35,466 bases of DNA. Origin: a virus (Duplodnaviria; Heunggongvirae; Uroviricota; Caudoviricetes). Positions 3,901 to 10,240 of this stretch are shown one piece after another (the first letter of the stretch is position 1; each line of letters starts with the position of its first letter). The stretch is from IMG/VR virus record IMGVR_UViG_2711768053_000015; one strand, given 5' to 3'. The notes beneath the pieces were generated by a model, which ran no database searches, was not told the DNA's origin, and saw nothing but the letters and a program-made list of their open reading frames with translations. Position numbers and translations under genes: made by a program.

Positions 3901-4172
3901 GTATTCGTATTGAAATTGGCGAACGTTATGTCGTTACCAGTGACAGCTTCCAGTTTATTCTCCACGAGAAAAAGAGAGCGGAAAGCGGTAAAAACGCCGG
4001 TCAGGAATGGCTGGCGGTGGTTGGTTATTACCCGAAATTAAGCCAGCTTGTTTCCGGCCTGATGCATCACGATATTCTGACCGGAAGCGCAAAGTCTTTT
4101 GCTGATTTAAACGCGCAGGTTGAGCAACTCAGCAGGCGTTGTTCAGAGGCTTTTGGCTCATATGGCCGTTAA
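3897..4172 (+). CDS. Small early protein, orf83-like
   Basis: ORF track; ATGA overlap with the preceding gene. Confidence 0.55.
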   Translation: MSIRIEIGERYVVTSDSFQFILHEKKRAESGKNAGQEWLAVVGYYPKLSQLVSGLMHHDILTGSAKSFADLNAQVEQLSRRCSEAFGSYGR

Positions 4173-6225
4173 AGCCTCCGGGCGTTTTGTCCCTCCGTCA
4201 GCATTTGCTGCAGGCACCGGTAAGGCGTTTACCGGTGCTTATGCATGGAACGCGCCACGCGAGGCCGTCGGGCGCGAAAGACCCCTTACACGTGACGAGA
4301 TGCGTCAGGTGCAAGGTGTTTTATCCACGATTAACCGCCTGCCTTACTTTTTGCGCTCGCTGTTTACTTCACGCTATGACTACATCCGGCGCAATAAAAG
4401 CCCGGTGCACGGGTTTTATTTCCTCACATCCACTTTTCAGCGTCGTTTATGGCCGCGCATTGAGCGCGTGAATCAGCGCCATGAAATGAACACCGACGCG
4501 TCGTTGCTGTTTCTGGCAGAGCGTGACCATTATGCGCGTCTGCCGGGGATGAATGATAAGGAGCTGAAAAAGTTTGCCGCCCGTATCTCATCGCAGCTTT
4601 TCATGATGTATGAGGAACTCTGCGATGCCTGGGTGGATGCGCATGGCGAAAAAGAATCGCTGTTTACGGATGAGGCGCAGGCTCACCTCTATGGTCATGT
4701 TGCTGGCGCTGCACGTGCTTTCAATATTTCCCCGCTCTACTGGAAAAAATACCGTAAAGGACAGATGACCACGAGGCAGGCATATTCTGCCATTGCCCGC
4801 CTGTTTAACGATGAGTGGTGGATTAGTCAGCTTAAAGGCCAGCGTATGCGCTGGCATGAGGCGTTACTGATTGCTGTCGGGGAGGTCAATAAAGACCGTT
4901 CACCTTATGCCAGTAAACATGCCATTCGTGATGTGCGTGCGCGCCGCCAGGCAAATCTGGAATTTCTTAAATCGTGTAACCTTGAAAACAGGGAAACCGG
5001 CGAGCGCATCGACCTTATCAGTAAGGTGATGGGCAGTATTTCTAATCCTGAAATTCGCCGGATGGAGCTGATGAACACCATTGCCGGTATTGAGCGTTAC
5101 GCCGCCGCAGAGGGTGATGTGGGGATGTTTATCACGCTGACCGCGCCGTCAAAGTATCACCCGACTCGTCAGGTCAGAAAAGGCGAAAGTAAAACCGTTC
5201 AGCTTAATCACGGCTGGAACGATGAGGCATTTAATCCAAAGGATGCGCAGCGTTATCTCTGCCGCATCTGGAGCCTGATGCGCACGGCATTCAAGGATAA
5301 TGATTTACAGGTCTACGGTTTGCGTGTCGTCGAGCCACACCACGACGGAACGCCGCACTGGCATATGATGCTTTTTTGTAATCCACGCCAGCGTAACCAG
5401 ATTATCGAAATCATGCGTCGCTATGCGCTCAAAGAGGATGGTGACGAAAGAGGAGCCGCGCGAAACCGTTTTCAGGTAAAGCACCTTAACCGGGGCGGTG
5501 CTGCGGGATATATCGCGAAATACATTTCAAAAAATATCGACGGCTATGCACTGGATGGTCAGCTCGATAATGATACCGGCAGACCGCTGAAAGATACTGC
5601 CGCGGCTGTTACCGCATGGGCGTCAACGTGGCGCATCCCGCAATTTAAAACGGTTGGTCTGCCGACAATGGGGGCTTACCGTGAACTACGCAAATTGCCT
5701 CGCGGCGTCAGCATTGCTGATGAGTTTGACGAGCGCGTCGAGGCTGCACGCGCCGCTGCAGACAGTGGTGATTTTGCGTTGTATATCAGCGCGCAGGGCG
5801 GGGCAAATGTCCCGCGCGATTGTCAGACTGTCAGGGTCGCCCGTAGCCCGTCGGATGACGTTAACGAGTACGAGGAAGAAGTCGAGAGAGTGGTCGGCAT
5901 TTACGCGCCGCATCTCGGCGCGCGTCATATTCATATCACCAGAACCACGGACTGGCGCATTGTGCCGAAAGTGCCGGTCGTTGAGCCTTTGACTTTAAAA
6001 AGCGGCATCGCCGCGCCTCGGAGTCCTGTCAATAACTGTGGAAAGCTCACTGGTGGTGATACTTCGTTACCGGCTCCCACACCTTCTGAGCACGCCGCAG
6101 CAGTGCTTAATCTGGTTGATGACGGTGTTATCGAATGGAGTGACCCAGAGGTCGTCAGAGTGTTTAGAAACACATTAAAGCATTATTTGCCAATGTTTAC
6201 TCGGCAAGAGAAGATAAGTGGCTAG
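4162..6225 (+). CDS. A: Replication initiation protein A (rolling-circle nickase); start taken at MAVKASG
   Basis: ORF track 4120..6225; strong match to recalled P2 gpA including HxH-type motif VEPHHDGTPHWHMMLF and the active-site region GYIAKYISKN; start at 4162 overlaps the orf83 stop. Confidence 0.92.
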   Translation: MAVKASGRFVPPSAFAAGTGKAFTGAYAWNAPREAVGRERPLTRDEMRQVQGVLSTINRLPYFLRSLFTSRYDYIRRNKSPVHGFYFLTSTFQRRLWPRIERVNQRHEMNTDASLLFLAERDHYARLPGMNDKELKKFAARISSQLFMMYEELCDAWVDAHGEKESLFTDEAQAHLYGHVAGAARAFNISPLYWKKYRKGQMTTRQAYSAIARLFNDEWWISQLKGQRMRWHEALLIAVGEVNKDRSPYASKHAIRDVRARRQANLEFLKSCNLENRETGERIDLISKVMGSISNPEIRRMELMNTIAGIERYAAAEGDVGMFITLTAPSKYHPTRQVRKGESKTVQLNHGWNDEAFNPKDAQRYLCRIWSLMRTAFKDNDLQVYGLRVVEPHHDGTPHWHMMLFCNPRQRNQIIEIMRRYALKEDGDERGAARNRFQVKHLNRGGAAGYIAKYISKNIDGYALDGQLDNDTGRPLKDTAAAVTAWASTWRIPQFKTVGLPTMGAYRELRKLPRGVSIADEFDERVEAARAAADSGDFALYISAQGGANVPRDCQTVRVARSPSDDVNEYEEEVERVVGIYAPHLGARHIHITRTTDWRIVPKVPVVEPLTLKSGIAAPRSPVNNCGKLTGGDTSLPAPTPSEHAAAVLNLVDDGVIEWSDPEVVRVFRNTLKHYLPMFTRQEKISG

Positions 6226-6439
6226 CTGATATAATTGCATAGGATTACATTGTTCGTTTGGATGGTCGGAGCTTGGAGAGAGTAACTGTCGTTCACTTGC
6301 TTTGAGTTTTTCAAAATGACCATCAGCAGCAAATTGGGAACTTCAGGGGGCTGGAGCGTGGCTATTAATCATCCGAAAAATCACTTTCTCACATTAAGGG
6401 ATTGTTAGTTTGATTCAACTTTTAAAGCAACTATGGCTT

Positions 6440-6467
6440 TAGACAATGACTGATGTCATGATAGAAT
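6440..6467 (+). promoter_or_regulatory. Candidate sigma70 promoter for the methyltransferase (TAGACA-16 bp-TAGAAT)
   Basis: -35-like TAGACA at 6440..6445 and -10 TAGAAT at 6462..6467, about 40 nt upstream of the MTase start. Confidence 0.35.
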
Positions 6468-6507
6468 ACATGATCGTTAGTTGAATCTTTAGCATGGTTA
6501 TTTGAAT

Positions 6508-7659
6508 ATGAATGTAGTTGATTTATTCTCTGGAGTTGGCGGTTTAAGCTTAGGGGCAACTCGAGCCGGTTTCAACTTGGTTGGAGCTGTTGAACTGGAT
6601 AAACATGCTATTTTTTCACATGAGTTAAACTTCCCAAAATCAACACATTTGCATCGGGATGTCTGCTCGCTTACAGCAAAAGATATTTTGTCTGCATGTG
6701 CTGTAAAGGACATTGATTGCGTTATTGGTGGTCCACCTTGCCAAGGATTTAGCACCATTGGAAAAAGGAATGCCAATGATACAAGAAATGAATTGTATAT
6801 TCATTTTTTTAGGTTGGTAAGTGAGTTATCTCCAATTTGTTTTTTGGCAGAGAATGTTCCAGGAATTATGGGTGAGAAATATAATCCAGTAAGAGAAGAA
6901 GCATTTTCTTTAGTTAGAGATGGCTATTGTTTATTACATCCAATAAGGGTTAATGCTTCAAATTATGGAGCACCTACGACACGGACACGAATATTTTTCA
7001 TGGGTTTTAAAAGAGGTTTTATTAATCAGTTAAAAGAATCTGATTTTTTTCCTAAAAATATAATAGAGCAGACTCTTGTCAAAGATGCACTCTACGGATT
7101 ACCGCGAACTATAAGAAAAGAGTGGCAGACAGAGGAGCAAGGCTGGCGTTCAGTAAAAATGGATAAAGATGGTTACTATTATGAGCGACTTTGGGGACAT
7201 ATACCAAATGGTGTAGGTGATGCAGAATCCATTCAAAATTTAAAGAAAGGATTGGTATCTGGCTTTTTAGGTACAGCTCATTCGGAGGAAGTGCTCAGGA
7301 GATATAGACAACTTTCATTCGGTGAAACTGATAAGATTTCGAGATCACAACGACTCAATCCTAACGGTTTTTGTCCAACTTTGAGAGCAGGTACAGGAAG
7401 TGACAAGGGGAGTTATCAGGCCGTTAGGCCAATTCACCCTACTCAAGCTAGGGTGATAACTCCTCGTGAAGCAGCTAGGTTACAAGGGTTTCCTGATTGG
7501 TTCCGTTTTCATCCTACAAAGTGGCACAGTTTTAGACAGATAGGTAATAGCGTTAGTCCGCTTGTGGCTGAGGCTATGCTATTACCTTTATACGATTACT
7601 GTTTAAAAGTTAAAAAAGAATCTTTGAATACCATGGAACGACCTTGTAGTATTCGATAA
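6508..7659 (+). CDS. DNA cytosine-5 methyltransferase (Dcm/M.HhaI-type fold)
   Basis: Canonical C5-MTase motifs in order: FSGVGG (motif I), GGPPCQGFS (motif IV, catalytic Cys), ENVPG (motif VI), QIGNSVSP (motif X). Track ORF starts at a TTG at 6502; first ATG is 6508. Confidence 0.9.
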   Translation: MNVVDLFSGVGGLSLGATRAGFNLVGAVELDKHAIFSHELNFPKSTHLHRDVCSLTAKDILSACAVKDIDCVIGGPPCQGFSTIGKRNANDTRNELYIHFFRLVSELSPICFLAENVPGIMGEKYNPVREEAFSLVRDGYCLLHPIRVNASNYGAPTTRTRIFFMGFKRGFINQLKESDFFPKNIIEQTLVKDALYGLPRTIRKEWQTEEQGWRSVKMDKDGYYYERLWGHIPNGVGDAESIQNLKKGLVSGFLGTAHSEEVLRRYRQLSFGETDKISRSQRLNPNGFCPTLRAGTGSDKGSYQAVRPIHPTQARVITPREAARLQGFPDWFRFHPTKWHSFRQIGNSVSPLVAEAMLLPLYDYCLKVKKESLNTMERPCSIR

Positions 7660-8602
7660 AATTACTTAGATCGGAGTTGGCTCCAGAAGGAGTGGAGCCA
7701 ATGTAAAACCCTAGAGTTTCATGGATGTTTTCTACTGAAGCTTCGGGTAATAAAGATTCAATATGTATCCTTTCTTTTAAAGACATAGCAGGGACGTTTA
7801 TATTTTTAGGATTACTCCACTTCCCATCATAAAATGGCCAATTCTTGATTCTGGAATTATCAATAAATTTAGCTTCTTCTGTATCAGTGTTTTCAAGAAC
7901 GATAGCTGTTAAAGTAACCATCTGTTGGCCATCTTTATAAACGAAAGAAGTTAATGGATGTATTCTTATGTCATTTCGACCTTTTAATCCATGCCCTATT
8001 GCGCGTCTCATAGCATTAACTAGGAGCATAGGGTATTTTTTAAATCCGACATCTTCGACTACTGCATTCGGTGGTAAAAAATCTTGAGTCAAAATATCGT
8101 TTATCTTTTGAAATCTATATGCTCTTGGATCTCGTTCGCTCGGGTTTTTTCCCAAGGCTTCAGGGTTTGCATTTAAAGTGATCTTAAAAATGTCTTTGGG
8201 TTTTAGCTTTGTAACCAAATTAACTATTTCATTTAACTGAGCATTTAAGTCTGAAGGCGTTGCATAATCTAACCATATGATCGTTTTATCGTCAAAGTTA
8301 TAGCGATTGATGAAGTCTCCGCTCATTTCTGGGGTATCACCCAAATTTATGCAAGATAATGGTTTGTTAAACTGTTGTCGGCAATGGACATTTTTATCTC
8401 CTTCGATAGATATCATTTTAGTCACTTTTAACAAATTATGAATTTGTTTGAAATCTTCGAGGAAAGGCCCCCCGAATCCTATATATACATATTCGGATAT
8501 GTTTGTATAATTGTTTAACCTTCTTAGGGATTCTATAAATAGATTCCTTTCAATGGCTTTGTTTTGCCGCAAATGATATGGGATGCTTCCGCCAGTACTC
8601 AT
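7610..8602 (-). CDS. Hypothetical 330-aa protein, downstream partner of the GHKL ATPase; function unknown
   Basis: ORF track; start ATG overlaps the ATPase stop (ATGA at 8599..8602); AT-rich; no nuclease or helicase motif recognised by eye; glycine-rich segment YVYIGFGGPF. Confidence 0.6.
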   Translation of the reverse strand: MSTGGSIPYHLRQNKAIERNLFIESLRRLNNYTNISEYVYIGFGGPFLEDFKQIHNLLKVTKMISIEGDKNVHCRQQFNKPLSCINLGDTPEMSGDFINRYNFDDKTIIWLDYATPSDLNAQLNEIVNLVTKLKPKDIFKITLNANPEALGKNPSERDPRAYRFQKINDILTQDFLPPNAVVEDVGFKKYPMLLVNAMRRAIGHGLKGRNDIRIHPLTSFVYKDGQQMVTLTAIVLENTDTEEAKFIDNSRIKNWPFYDGKWSNPKNINVPAMSLKERIHIESLLPEASVENIHETLGFYIGSTPSGANSDLSNFIEYYKVVPWYSKILF

Positions 8603-10023
8603 TGTTTAGCCTTTTTTAGAAATTCATCAAAACAATATTGACCAACCTCTGTTGGTGGTTGAGTTGCATCATCAAAGAGAAACTCTGACACCAGTTTTAT
8701 TTCACTATGTCTACGGCTAAATTTTATCTGACGTAATGGATCCGAATCCCGAGGCATTGGTAGCTTCGGTTTGAAAACTTCTCCTCCTATTGAACGTCGA
8801 ACGTTCGACCAGTTTTCTCTAGGAATTGATTTAGTAAAGTCGACCTCAGTTGTTGAAACCATATTGGATGCAGTATTAATAATTTGCTTTCTTTCCTCTG
8901 CGTTACTTTTCCATTTGTTGGTAAAGTCCGTGAAGAATTTTAAACCCTCGCGCATAAAATCTTTAGTAGAAAGATATAGCTCAGAGTTACCATCAACACC
9001 TCGTTTAGTTGTAGTGATAGGTAGTAATTCAGCATTTGATGATGTGAAAATAACAACACCAGAAATTCCGATGAATTGAGTATGATATTGTGGAACTCCA
9101 GCTTCTCCCCAACCTGTAAGCTTGGTTTTATCCGCATGTAGGACTACACGATCATTGCATATAATTGTCCAACCAGCTTTTTCTGTTGTGGAACGGCCTG
9201 ATAATAAATTCTCTTCTTCTTCCTCACTAGGCAAGTTACGATAAAATCCAACTGCAACTTTAATTGAAACTCCATTTGAATTATTTTTATATACATAAGG
9301 AGCAATGCCGTCGGTATTGCCTTTAATGGCTTCTTCATCAAATATTAAATTGGTGCTATTTGGCTTAACAATACATCCATTTACTTTAACCTCAAACCCT
9401 TTTTTAATGATTAAACTATAATGATTTGCTATGATATTAATCAAAACTTCTTCAAAGCCACGATCCTTTGATAGGGATGCTTTAATATCTTTCCTTAAAT
9501 TGTTAATTTGGATGCTGACGCCTGTTTCGTTTAAGTCAACATTATTTCGCTCTAACTCCAAAGACCAGTTTTCATCATCAGCCATCCATTCAGGAGAAAT
9601 GGTAACTGAAAATTGTTCGTTTTCAGTTTTGCTTAAAATCTGAGCAGATGTCCCCATTTTGAAAATCGCTCGTTTCATTCCGATACCATATACACCAATT
9701 GTCGGGAGATCATCCGCCTCACGTTCTGCAGGTCTACCCAACCTAAACGCATAGCTTTCCGCAAGTTTTGCTGGAATACCTCCGCAATTATCAGTTATTC
9801 TGAAACTATTCTCATCAAATTCAATATGAGCATAGTAACCCTTGTAAACGTCTGATTTACCGAAGGTTTGCTCTGGAGTGAAATTGTTTTTTCTTAATAC
9901 ACCATCTAGGCAGTTATCTAGTAAATCTAGAATTGAGTCAGACAACTCAATATCTCGGGTGAGCATCTCAACAAAGAATCTTTTTGCTGGAAATGCTGCT
10001 ATTTTGACGTTTGACGAAACCAT
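8599..10023 (-). CDS. GHKL-superfamily ATPase (histidine-kinase/MutL/MORC-like Bergerat fold), 474 aa
   Basis: N-box-like LLDNCLDG, G1 box DNCGGI, G2 box GVYGIGMKRAIF in the expected order and spacing; AAGGA RBS 6 nt upstream of the ATG at 10023. Confidence 0.75.
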   Translation of the reverse strand: MVSSNVKIAAFPAKRFFVEMLTRDIELSDSILDLLDNCLDGVLRKNNFTPEQTFGKSDVYKGYYAHIEFDENSFRITDNCGGIPAKLAESYAFRLGRPAEREADDLPTIGVYGIGMKRAIFKMGTSAQILSKTENEQFSVTISPEWMADDENWSLELERNNVDLNETGVSIQINNLRKDIKASLSKDRGFEEVLINIIANHYSLIIKKGFEVKVNGCIVKPNSTNLIFDEEAIKGNTDGIAPYVYKNNSNGVSIKVAVGFYRNLPSEEEEENLLSGRSTTEKAGWTIICNDRVVLHADKTKLTGWGEAGVPQYHTQFIGISGVVIFTSSNAELLPITTTKRGVDGNSELYLSTKDFMREGLKFFTDFTNKWKSNAEERKQIINTASNMVSTTEVDFTKSIPRENWSNVRRSIGGEVFKPKLPMPRDSDPLRQIKFSRRHSEIKLVSEFLFDDATQPPTEVGQYCFDEFLKKAKQ

Positions 10024-10089
10024 AAATTATCCTTTTTCGAACAGTAATTTTCGCATTCATGCATAATGGCTGTGAACGAAGATTCGTCT

Positions 10090-10118
10090 TGATTAGGCGT
10101 GCATGATTTTGCATACAA
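10090..10118 (-). promoter_or_regulatory. Candidate promoter for the ATPase operon (minus strand TTGTAT-17 bp-TAATCA) overlapping an inverted repeat CATACA-aaa-TGTATG
   Basis: Minus-strand -35 at 10113..10118 and -10 at 10090..10095; palindrome at 10112..10126. Confidence 0.3.
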
Positions 10119-10221
10119 AATGTATGAAAAAAAAAGCTGCCTGTCTATGACTGATAGCCGTCTAGTTACTTGGTTTTCAAGACAAATGCGACTGCATCAA
10201 AACCGTCTCATGAAGCGGGCG

Positions 10222-10240
10222 GGCGAGGCGGGGAAAGCAC
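10222..10240. other. cos: cos site: 19-nt sequence GGCGAGGCGGGGAAAGCAC matching the recalled P2 cohesive end
   Basis: Exact 19-mer present in the GC-rich segment between cargo 1 and Q, where P2 cos lies. Confidence 0.55.

Follow-up and report, generated by a model that had tools for sequence, protein, structure and literature searches.

A three-gene cargo module of P2-like prophages with a cytosine methylase, a MORC-like ATPase and a methyltransferase-fold protein as a candidate conflict system

What is the function of three AT-rich genes that lie between the replication gene A and the cos site of a P2-like prophage? The question was raised by the IMG/VR virus record IMGVR_UViG_2711768053_000015, a stretch of 35,466 nucleotides that is called the window in the following. 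The block at positions 6226-10221 encodes a C5 cytosine DNA methyltransferase on the plus strand (6508-7659; 383 amino acids, WP_029401229). On the minus strand it encodes a MORC-like ATPase of the paraMORC type with a GHKL and an S5 domain (8599-10023; 474 amino acids, WP_029401227) and a protein of 330 amino acids (7610-8602; WP_029401228) that belongs to the family Methyltransf_35 (PF20553) and is called MT35 below. An earlier note, which had been made from the sequence alone, had proposed that the block is an undescribed defence system. It was found that these genes are conserved together as a unit, and it is tentatively proposed that this unit acts as a conflict system that is keyed to DNA methylation.

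Conservation of the three-gene unit

The MT35 protein was used for a scan of one genome per species, which returned 37 loci from Proteobacteria, Cyanobacteria, Nitrospirales, Latescibacterota, Verrucomicrobia, Kiritimatiellae, Poribacteria, Planctomycetes and one methanogen. Other look-ups added loci from Vibrio cholerae and Pseudomonas as well as a second Escherichia coli allele, and the gene neighbourhoods were compared in 39 non-redundant loci from about ten phyla and one archaeon. Wherever the locus is complete, the MT35 gene follows immediately on the ATPase gene and abuts or overlaps it, and the neighbour clusters of 32 of the 39 loci include a C5 methylase. The distant phyla have all three genes on the same strand as a single operon, with the order C5 methylase, GHKL ATPase, MT35. 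The full trio was also present in 34 of the 36 IMG/VR viral contigs that have an MT35 relative. As a check that started from the methylase, five C5 homologs with 57-63% identity were picked regardless of their neighbours. A paraMORC-type GHKL gene adjoins the C5 gene in all five, and three of them belong to an MT35 trio, namely one from Dyadobacter, one from a lambdoid prophage of Enterobacter and one from a metagenome contig, where a portal gene is close by; of the remaining two, one has only a GHKL gene for 623 amino acids and the other lies at a contig end. Taken together, the ATPase, methylase and MT35 genes are a conserved unit. A fourth conserved gene was also sought, and Vsr genes, which were found in nine of the 39 loci, were the only further recurrent conserved neighbour. 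Their presence fits a real formation of 5-methylcytosine (5mC).

The three proteins have diverged to different degrees. The identities to the distant phyla are 52-55% for the C5 methylase, 43-47% for the GHKL ATPase and 27-32% for MT35, and the respective values between the window and the allele of E. coli O157:H7 are 63, 43 and 35%. MT35 is thus the fastest-evolving component, as expected for an effector or a specificity component. A separate arrangement was observed in a Rhodoferax metagenome-assembled genome (locus L021, 6613-13706), in which a single C5 methylase lies between two different pairs of GHKL and MT35 genes; the second MT35 matches PF20553 with an E-value of 2e-74.

Properties of the three proteins

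The earlier note had called the 330-residue partner an unknown protein, which has to be corrected. It is a full-length member of PF20553, as its residues 3-328 cover the profile positions 2-307 of 309 with an E-value of 4.6e-85 and 286 bits (cut-off 27). In place of the nuclease fold for which a search had been suggested, the structure model (predicted local distance difference test score, pLDDT, 91.8) exhibited the seven-strand fold of class I S-adenosylmethionine (SAM)-dependent methyltransferases with a helical C-terminal part, and its closest folds were Trm1 and RsmD. The features that define this class were all found, i.e., a Rossmann-like fold, a motif I rich in glycine, an acidic residue that follows strand 2 and a conserved residue in motif IV. 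In 37 family members with 27-100% identity, the residues G42, F43, G44 and G45 of the glycine-rich loop are invariant and are followed by the likewise invariant E49 and D50. Also invariant are E67 after strand 2, W110 and D112 at the end of strand 4, and T142 in strand 5, and K140 is kept in at least 90% of the members. The N-terminal helix contains the invariant basic residues R12, K15 and R19, and the invariant acidic residues E49, D50, D224 and E277 lie beyond the SAM motifs. This residue pattern is the one predicted for a catalytically active SAM enzyme with a charged substrate. Pfam and RefSeq use the name "O-methyltransferase" (RefSeq for WP_029401228), for which the "O-" has no support in the present data.

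A sequence search of the PDB with MT35 yielded chance matches only, and thus no solved structure is related to it in sequence. Neither Pfam nor NCBIfam nor PADLOC revealed a nuclease family in MT35 or in the ATPase, and NCBIfam had no match at all for the two proteins. The MT35 family comprises 1983 clusters at 50% identity in a library of 1.84 billion proteins. Fusions to other domains were sought in the best 150 of the 1983 representative clusters, and all of these are single-domain proteins of about 330 residues.

The ATPase matches HATPase_c_3 (PF13589) with an E-value of 2.6e-8 and consists of a GHKL and S5 module with intact ATP-binding motifs and a C-terminal extension of about 100 amino acids. 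It has the characteristics of MORC and paraMORC GHKL ATPases, that is, a Bergerat-fold ATP site with motifs I-IV and an S5 transducer domain with the conserved lysine. Across 40 homologs motif I (LDLLDNCLDG), motif II (DNCGGI) and motif III (GVYGIGMKRA) are retained, and the same is true for the elements CNDRVV and LPxTTTKRG of the S5 domain. The family-specific tail (residues 370-474) has no acidic or histidine motifs; its invariant residues are Gly, Pro, Phe and Leu, and a metal-binding set is missing. The PDB sequence search with the ATPase returned only MORC3, with an E-value of 0.2.

The methylase starts with the ATG at position 6508 in the RefSeq annotation, and the mechanically predicted open reading frame begins with a TTG at position 6502. 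It scored far above the cut-offs of PF00145 (E 1.7e-59; 202 bits, cut-off 22) and TIGR00675 (E 2.5e-51; 175 bits, cut-off 100.65), and it also matches the MTase_II family of PADLOC (E 5e-100). The translation carries GGPPCQGFS, ENVPG, RTR, REAARLQGFPD and GNSVSP, and hence motifs IV (PCQ), VI (ENV), VIII (RxR), IX and X, which is the complete catalytic motif set to be expected if a C5 DNA methyltransferase is active. Conservation is equal in the target-recognition region and in those parts of the catalytic core that lie outside of the motifs. Therefore, the methylases of this clade probably write a single, fixed sequence mark. A lambdoid prophage of E. coli O157:H7 encodes a methylase that shares 63% identity with that of the window, and the PDB sequence search matched the window's methylase to 3G7U with an E-value of 2e-154. 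From a reading of the alignments, the O157:H7 prophage methylase appears to be the protein that was solved as 3G7U, and thus one component of the module possibly already has a crystal structure. The literature search found no mention of 3G7U, nor of a methylome motif for the window's methylase.

Cargo slot, distribution and neighbourhood

The window contains a P2-like prophage with integrase, cox, gene A, portal gene Q, terminase gene P and the capsid genes in P2 order, and in E. coli this prophage adjoins yegR/yegS. The view that the three genes form an AT-rich block that does not belong to the P2 backbone held. The GC content is 0.34-0.41 in the block, in contrast to 0.50-0.60 in its flanks, and both boundaries could be recognized. 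On the right side, the 19-nt P2 cos sequence GGCGAGGCGGGGAAAGCAC is present without mismatch at positions 10222-10240 (no match in 100 shuffled sequences); this cohesive-end sequence is the landmark for the right boundary of the cargo slot, lies outside of the system and is followed by portal gene Q and terminase gene P. The left edge is the stop codon of gene A, which encodes the replication endonuclease (4162-6225). In comparison to the 766-residue homologue of a sister P2-like prophage, the gene A product is devoid of about 80 C-terminal residues. Up to about residue 675 the two proteins share 96% identity, beyond which they diverge, and therefore the left junction of the cargo swap lies inside gene A. 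RefSeq labels an identical copy of gene A as a pseudogene, and the shortened gene, judged from its sequence, may cause a replication defect of the prophage.

The stretch from 6226 to 6507 comprises the left junction, with its drop in GC content, and a spacer on the plus strand. A consensus scan predicted a promoter-like site upstream of the methylase gene (6440-6467, plus strand; TAGACA, 16 nt, TG-n-TAGAAT), which has 10 of 12 consensus matches and an extended -10 element. The methylase gene lies downstream of gene A and is co-directional with it. That it converges on an operon of the GHKL ATPase and the 330-residue protein had been seen correctly; the 3'-ends of the methylase and MT35 genes overlap by 50 nt (7610-7659), and the ATPase stop codon and the MT35 start codon share an ATGA, which couples the two genes translationally. 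The ATPase gene is preceded by an AAGGA ribosome-binding site. The upstream region of its operon (10024-10221, minus strand) contains two promoter-like sites (10147-10119 and 10076-10047) with nine of 12 consensus matches each, which is weak evidence, as the number of sites is not above the expectation from shuffled sequences.

The slot is the A-cos hotspot of P2 phages, for which anti-phage cargo has been validated experimentally (Rousset et al., 2022; PMC9122126). The proposal that this interval is a defence hotspot is therefore well founded, and the trio is a real, conserved unit at this place. No match to the island was found in the INPHARED phage records with megablast in "near" mode; it was found only as prophage and in IMG/VR contigs.

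Some allele of the trio is present in 222 of 5426 complete E. coli genomes (4%). The window's allele occurs in 46 of these genomes, always in full length and with at least 99% identity. A second P2 allele, with proteins that are 63-65% identical, was found in three genomes. The third allele is present in 173 genomes of O157:H7, O111:H8 and related strains, where it is part of a lambdoid prophage. It is nearly invariant, with 172 of the 173 copies being intact at at least 99% identity, and it is flanked by the replication genes on one side and by clustered DUF1367, DUF1364 and DUF1133 genes on the other (trio of O157:H7 strain 611: L046, 4488-7987). Two decayed copies were observed. In O157:H7 F6294 (L083) a clean deletion has removed the methylase gene and two-thirds of the MT35 gene and has left the ATPase gene intact, and in the viral contig L067 the MT35 gene is frameshifted and the C5 and ATPase genes are intact. 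A loss of the C5 gene alone, with GHKL and MT35 intact, was not seen in any E. coli or viral copy whose MT35 identity exceeds 40%. Of the divergent viral contigs, L081 has no C5 gene in the retrieved stretch and L082 has a weak C5 match only.

Copies of the trio are repeatedly associated with mobile elements. In Vibrio they are cargo of Tn7-like elements, in which a cluster of genes for a GHKL protein of 470 residues, MT35, a C5 methylase and a GHKL protein of 610 residues directly follows tnsE/tniQ. This four-gene cluster was found in V. cholerae (L002-L004, 6596-12088) and V. viridaestus (L011). The Pseudomonas locus adjoins an integrase gene, and other loci are found in prophage-like regions, lambdoid ones included, where the trio is part of the early region. 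A survey of 138 neighbouring proteins from 34 loci revealed TniQ, TniB, integrases and AAA_22 as recurrent families. The neighbours also include type I restriction-modification (R-M) proteins, NERD together with UvrD, mad2, HEC-01A, PD-T4-6 and PDC families. This neighbourhood is consistent with mobile defence or addiction cargo.

The window has a second AT-rich island at positions 25000-27000 (GC 0.33-0.36), which follows the tail-fibre assembly gene (24216-24743). It consists of two convergent open reading frames (25187-26101, plus strand, 304 amino acids; 26250-26825, minus strand, 191 amino acids) without a match in Pfam or PADLOC, and it is another cargo slot.

Proposed action, alternatives and related systems

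A clue to the role of MT35 came from a paralogous branch of longer GHKL proteins. In eight non-redundant loci the ATPase-MT35 pair lies beside a second module of a C5 methylase of another clade and a GHKL paralog of 546-610 residues; the V. cholerae locus, which had been fetched from three assemblies, was counted once. These long paralogs are 24-30% identical to the ATPase and have the same motif I with Asp and the same S5 motifs. The accompanying methylases are 43-47% identical to that of the window (59% in L085). One of the long paralogs, whose neighbouring C5 methylase is from a related clade (46% identity to that of the window), ends in a Ymh HEPN domain (L015, 4846-6486; PF09509, E 7e-34, motif RNPKAH). 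Fusions of paraMORC and Ymh domains in R-M neighbourhoods have been described before, and an anticodon nuclease action like that of PrrC and RloC was proposed for them (Anantharaman et al., 2013; PMC3710099). The pattern is thus a constant methylase and a constant MORC-like ATPase with a variable, fast-evolving third element. MT35 would stand in the effector position, where the long paraMORCs next to related C5 methylases have a C-terminal domain instead.

With a probability of roughly 0.45, the module is a mobile, methylation-keyed and nuclease-free conflict system of the paraMORC type that serves defence and/or addiction and has MT35 in the effector position; it is from the context only that we infer the function in defence. 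One fixed sequence in the resident DNA would carry the mark of the C5 methylase. As its structural relatives suggest, the ATPase would be a dimerising, ATP-gated DNA clamp, and the dimer would bind MT35 through the C-terminal extension. It would sense DNA without the mark, or a loss of methylation, and the ATP-driven dimerisation would license MT35. As the effector, and in line with its conserved catalytic residues, MT35 might then methylate nucleic acid and halt either the replication of the invader or the growth of the host. If RNA was its target, translational arrest would follow, as with the HEPN paralog, and if DNA was its target, a replication block. It is tempting to speculate that this is a restriction-like immunity with a methyltransferase as the weapon, in which a MORC clamp reads missing 5mC on incoming DNA and which would be the prokaryotic root of the methylation-linked silencing of invaders by eukaryotic MORCs; such a far-reaching version is, however, unlikely.

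Several observations weigh against the effector model. The general base of the ATPase, which usually is a Glu, is replaced by an Asp (D33) in 40 of 40 homologs and also in eight aligned long paralogs, and therefore hydrolysis is possibly slow. Five well-flanked loci from Oscillatoriales cyanobacteria and Parabeggiatoa have the GHKL-MT35 pair without an adjacent C5 gene, and the same is true for two contigs, L024 (short, cyanobacterial) and L081 (viral). A replacement methylase was sought near these loci, where only unrelated genes were found. Either the mark is supplied in trans in these cases, or the GHKL-MT35 pair acts independently of a mark. Furthermore, only one long paralog has a HEPN domain that is supported by Pfam. 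Eight others have helical tails that share E..R..lE..(N/Q)xxxH, which is a loose motif only; for these, Pfam gave no HEPN match even at an E-value of 5, hhalign revealed no significant similarity to the Ymh domain, and a profile search of the PDB returned nothing. Lastly, we know of no precedent for a methyltransferase as a toxic effector.

Two enzymes with a methyltransferase fold and no nuclease could form a module for modification only, with an ATPase that loads or targets both methyltransferases on the DNA of the element and/or the host and brings about anti-restriction or an epigenetic state without any killing. Phages commonly carry orphan methylases. The methylase gene is co-directional with the early gene A, the trio is found in the early region of lambdoid prophages, and eukaryotic MORCs help to establish DNA methylation according to passages of PMC8277788. 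Such a role is nevertheless doubtful. The HEPN RNase domain, which a long GHKL paralog beside a related C5 methylase carries, is a toxic effector, MT35 evolves far faster than the C5 methylase, which would be unusual for a housekeeping-type modification partner, and copies in Tn7-like elements and chromosomal islands reside outside of phages, where a self-protection of packaged DNA is irrelevant. Killing without immunity would be the essence of an addiction module, in which the C5 methylase is the antidote, the ATPase-MT35 pair is the poison, cells that lose the element die, so that the prophage, transposon or island is stabilised, and a meaningful anti-phage activity is missing. Architecture and decay pattern would be the same as for the effector model. 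The genes for the methylase and the putative poison are convergent and have separate predicted promoters, as in many R-M addiction cassettes, and the O157 allele is nearly invariant. A pure addiction module is still rather improbable, because the trio occupies slots of experimentally validated anti-phage cargo (PMC9122126), because five to seven loci have the pair without an adjacent antidote, and because addiction and defence are compatible with each other.

A cryptic nuclease, either in the C-terminal extension of the ATPase or in MT35, would cut unmethylated DNA and turn the trio into ordinary R-M. C-terminal nucleases do occur on MutL and on several paraMORCs (passages of PMC2292703), and the four invariant acidic residues of MT35 beyond the SAM motifs could be taken in its favour. 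The three databases did not reveal a nuclease family, however, and the invariant residues of the ATPase tail do not include a metal-binding set, which makes hidden cleavage improbable. Alternatively, the MutL-like ATPase and MT35 might be repair accessories that promote the very-short-patch repair of T:G mismatches after 5mC deamination, as the E. coli MutL stimulates Vsr. The Vsr genes in nine of the 39 loci would agree with this, and so would the passages of PMC2292703 that connect MutL and Vsr with cytosine methylation. Most loci, including that of the window, lack Vsr, however, a SAM methyltransferase would be left without a role, the HEPN-bearing paralog does not fit, and the pair also exists without an adjacent C5 methylase. 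A repair function is thus very improbable.

The trio is a compact and tractable example of its kind, with three genes on about 3.8 kb that are native to E. coli prophages. If MT35 is the effector, its chemistry would be new for bacterial immunity, and the module would allow a direct test of how a MORC ATPase reads DNA methylation. It also uncovers an annotation gap, as a module in a well-studied defence hotspot is invisible to PADLOC. No family of PADLOC-DB v2.0.0 (including Mza, BREX, DISARM, Druantia, MADS and the PD, HEC and PDC series) matched the ATPase or MT35 at an E-value of up to 0.1, in accordance with the check that had been proposed.

How does the trio relate to systems that have been described? 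The claim that the system is undescribed can be upheld in part. Neither PADLOC v2 nor the literature search yielded a named system for it, and the search found no mention of PF20553, no mention of the three WP accessions beyond Table S5 of Rousset et al. (2022), and no experimental study of a methylase-paired bacterial MORC or paraMORC ATPase. The trio is also not mentioned in a 2026 preprint on P2 and P4. Table S5, which lists the P2 hotspot, contains exactly these three accessions, and the systems that were cloned in that study include neither the trio sequences nor any methylase-containing system (PMC9122126). In addition, the class had been predicted. The trio is thus catalogued but uncharacterised, and it belongs to a computationally predicted kind. 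The literature search also brought up a preprint on a GHKL-fused SLFN-pAgo. WonAB of V. cholerae was considered as a relative and rejected; it is an unrelated ABC ATPase with a nuclease, and the word "GHKL" was the only link.

The earlier view that the trio is neither an ordinary type II R-M system nor a Dcm/Vsr pair was borne out. The window yielded no endonuclease, helicase or Vsr, the ATPase and MT35 have no nuclease family or fold, and no open reading frame of at least 50 amino acids in 6226-10221 resembles Vsr. The closest prediction is a class of cytosine methylases with paraMORC GHKL ATPases that was described as R-M-like and as containing the ancestors of eukaryotic MORCs, according to the passages of Iyer, Abhiman and Aravind (2008; PMC2292703). 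In common with the operons in these passages, the trio has a GHKL and S5 ATPase whose ATP motifs are intact, the linkage to a cytosine methylase, sometimes with Vsr, and the location on mobile elements. In contrast, these operons typically contain superfamily II helicases and nucleases of the restriction-fold, HNH or TIR type, whereas a helicase or endonuclease is neither present in the window nor conserved in the 39 loci. The fixed partner of the trio is the PF20553 protein, and no such partner occurs in the passages of PMC2292703. The paraMORC-Ymh HEPN fusions (PMC3710099) differ in that the window's ATPase has no HEPN domain and a separate MT35 stands in the position of the variable partner. 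Operons of a C5 methylase, Response_reg_2 and HATPase_c_3-HEF_HK (Bellieny-Rabelo et al., 2021; PMC8011034) have the same layout of three genes, for a C5 methylase, a GHKL protein derived from paraMORC and a small partner, and are likewise uncharacterised, but their partner is receiver-like and their ATPase has an additional HEF_HK and HATPase_c, all of which are absent from the trio.

With BREX, DISARM and Druantia type II the trio would share the logic of a methylase that labels self and of ATP-using proteins that stop the invader, with no obvious endonuclease involved. It has no homologs of BrxC, PglZ, DrmA or DruE, and PADLOC sees only its methylase, at the generic level of DruM, DrmMII or MTase_II. 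The eukaryotic proteins MORC2, MORC3 and SMCHD1 are about 17% identical to the window's ATPase, which is devoid of their CW, coiled-coil and hinge regions and has the Asp as general base. In GHKL-Shedu (paraMORC3; VcSduA, PMC12137116) the effector is a fused DUF4263 nuclease and there is no methylase partner, whereas the trio, which has no DUF4263 by Pfam and no nuclease motif in the ATPase tail and is thus no Shedu of type I-D, includes a methylase. The two would nevertheless have the principle in common, as control of a defence effector by an N-terminal GHKL ATPase has been proven experimentally for GHKL-Shedu, the only GHKL-led defence type with such proof in the literature consulted, and control of MT35 by the GHKL ATPase is what is proposed here for the trio.

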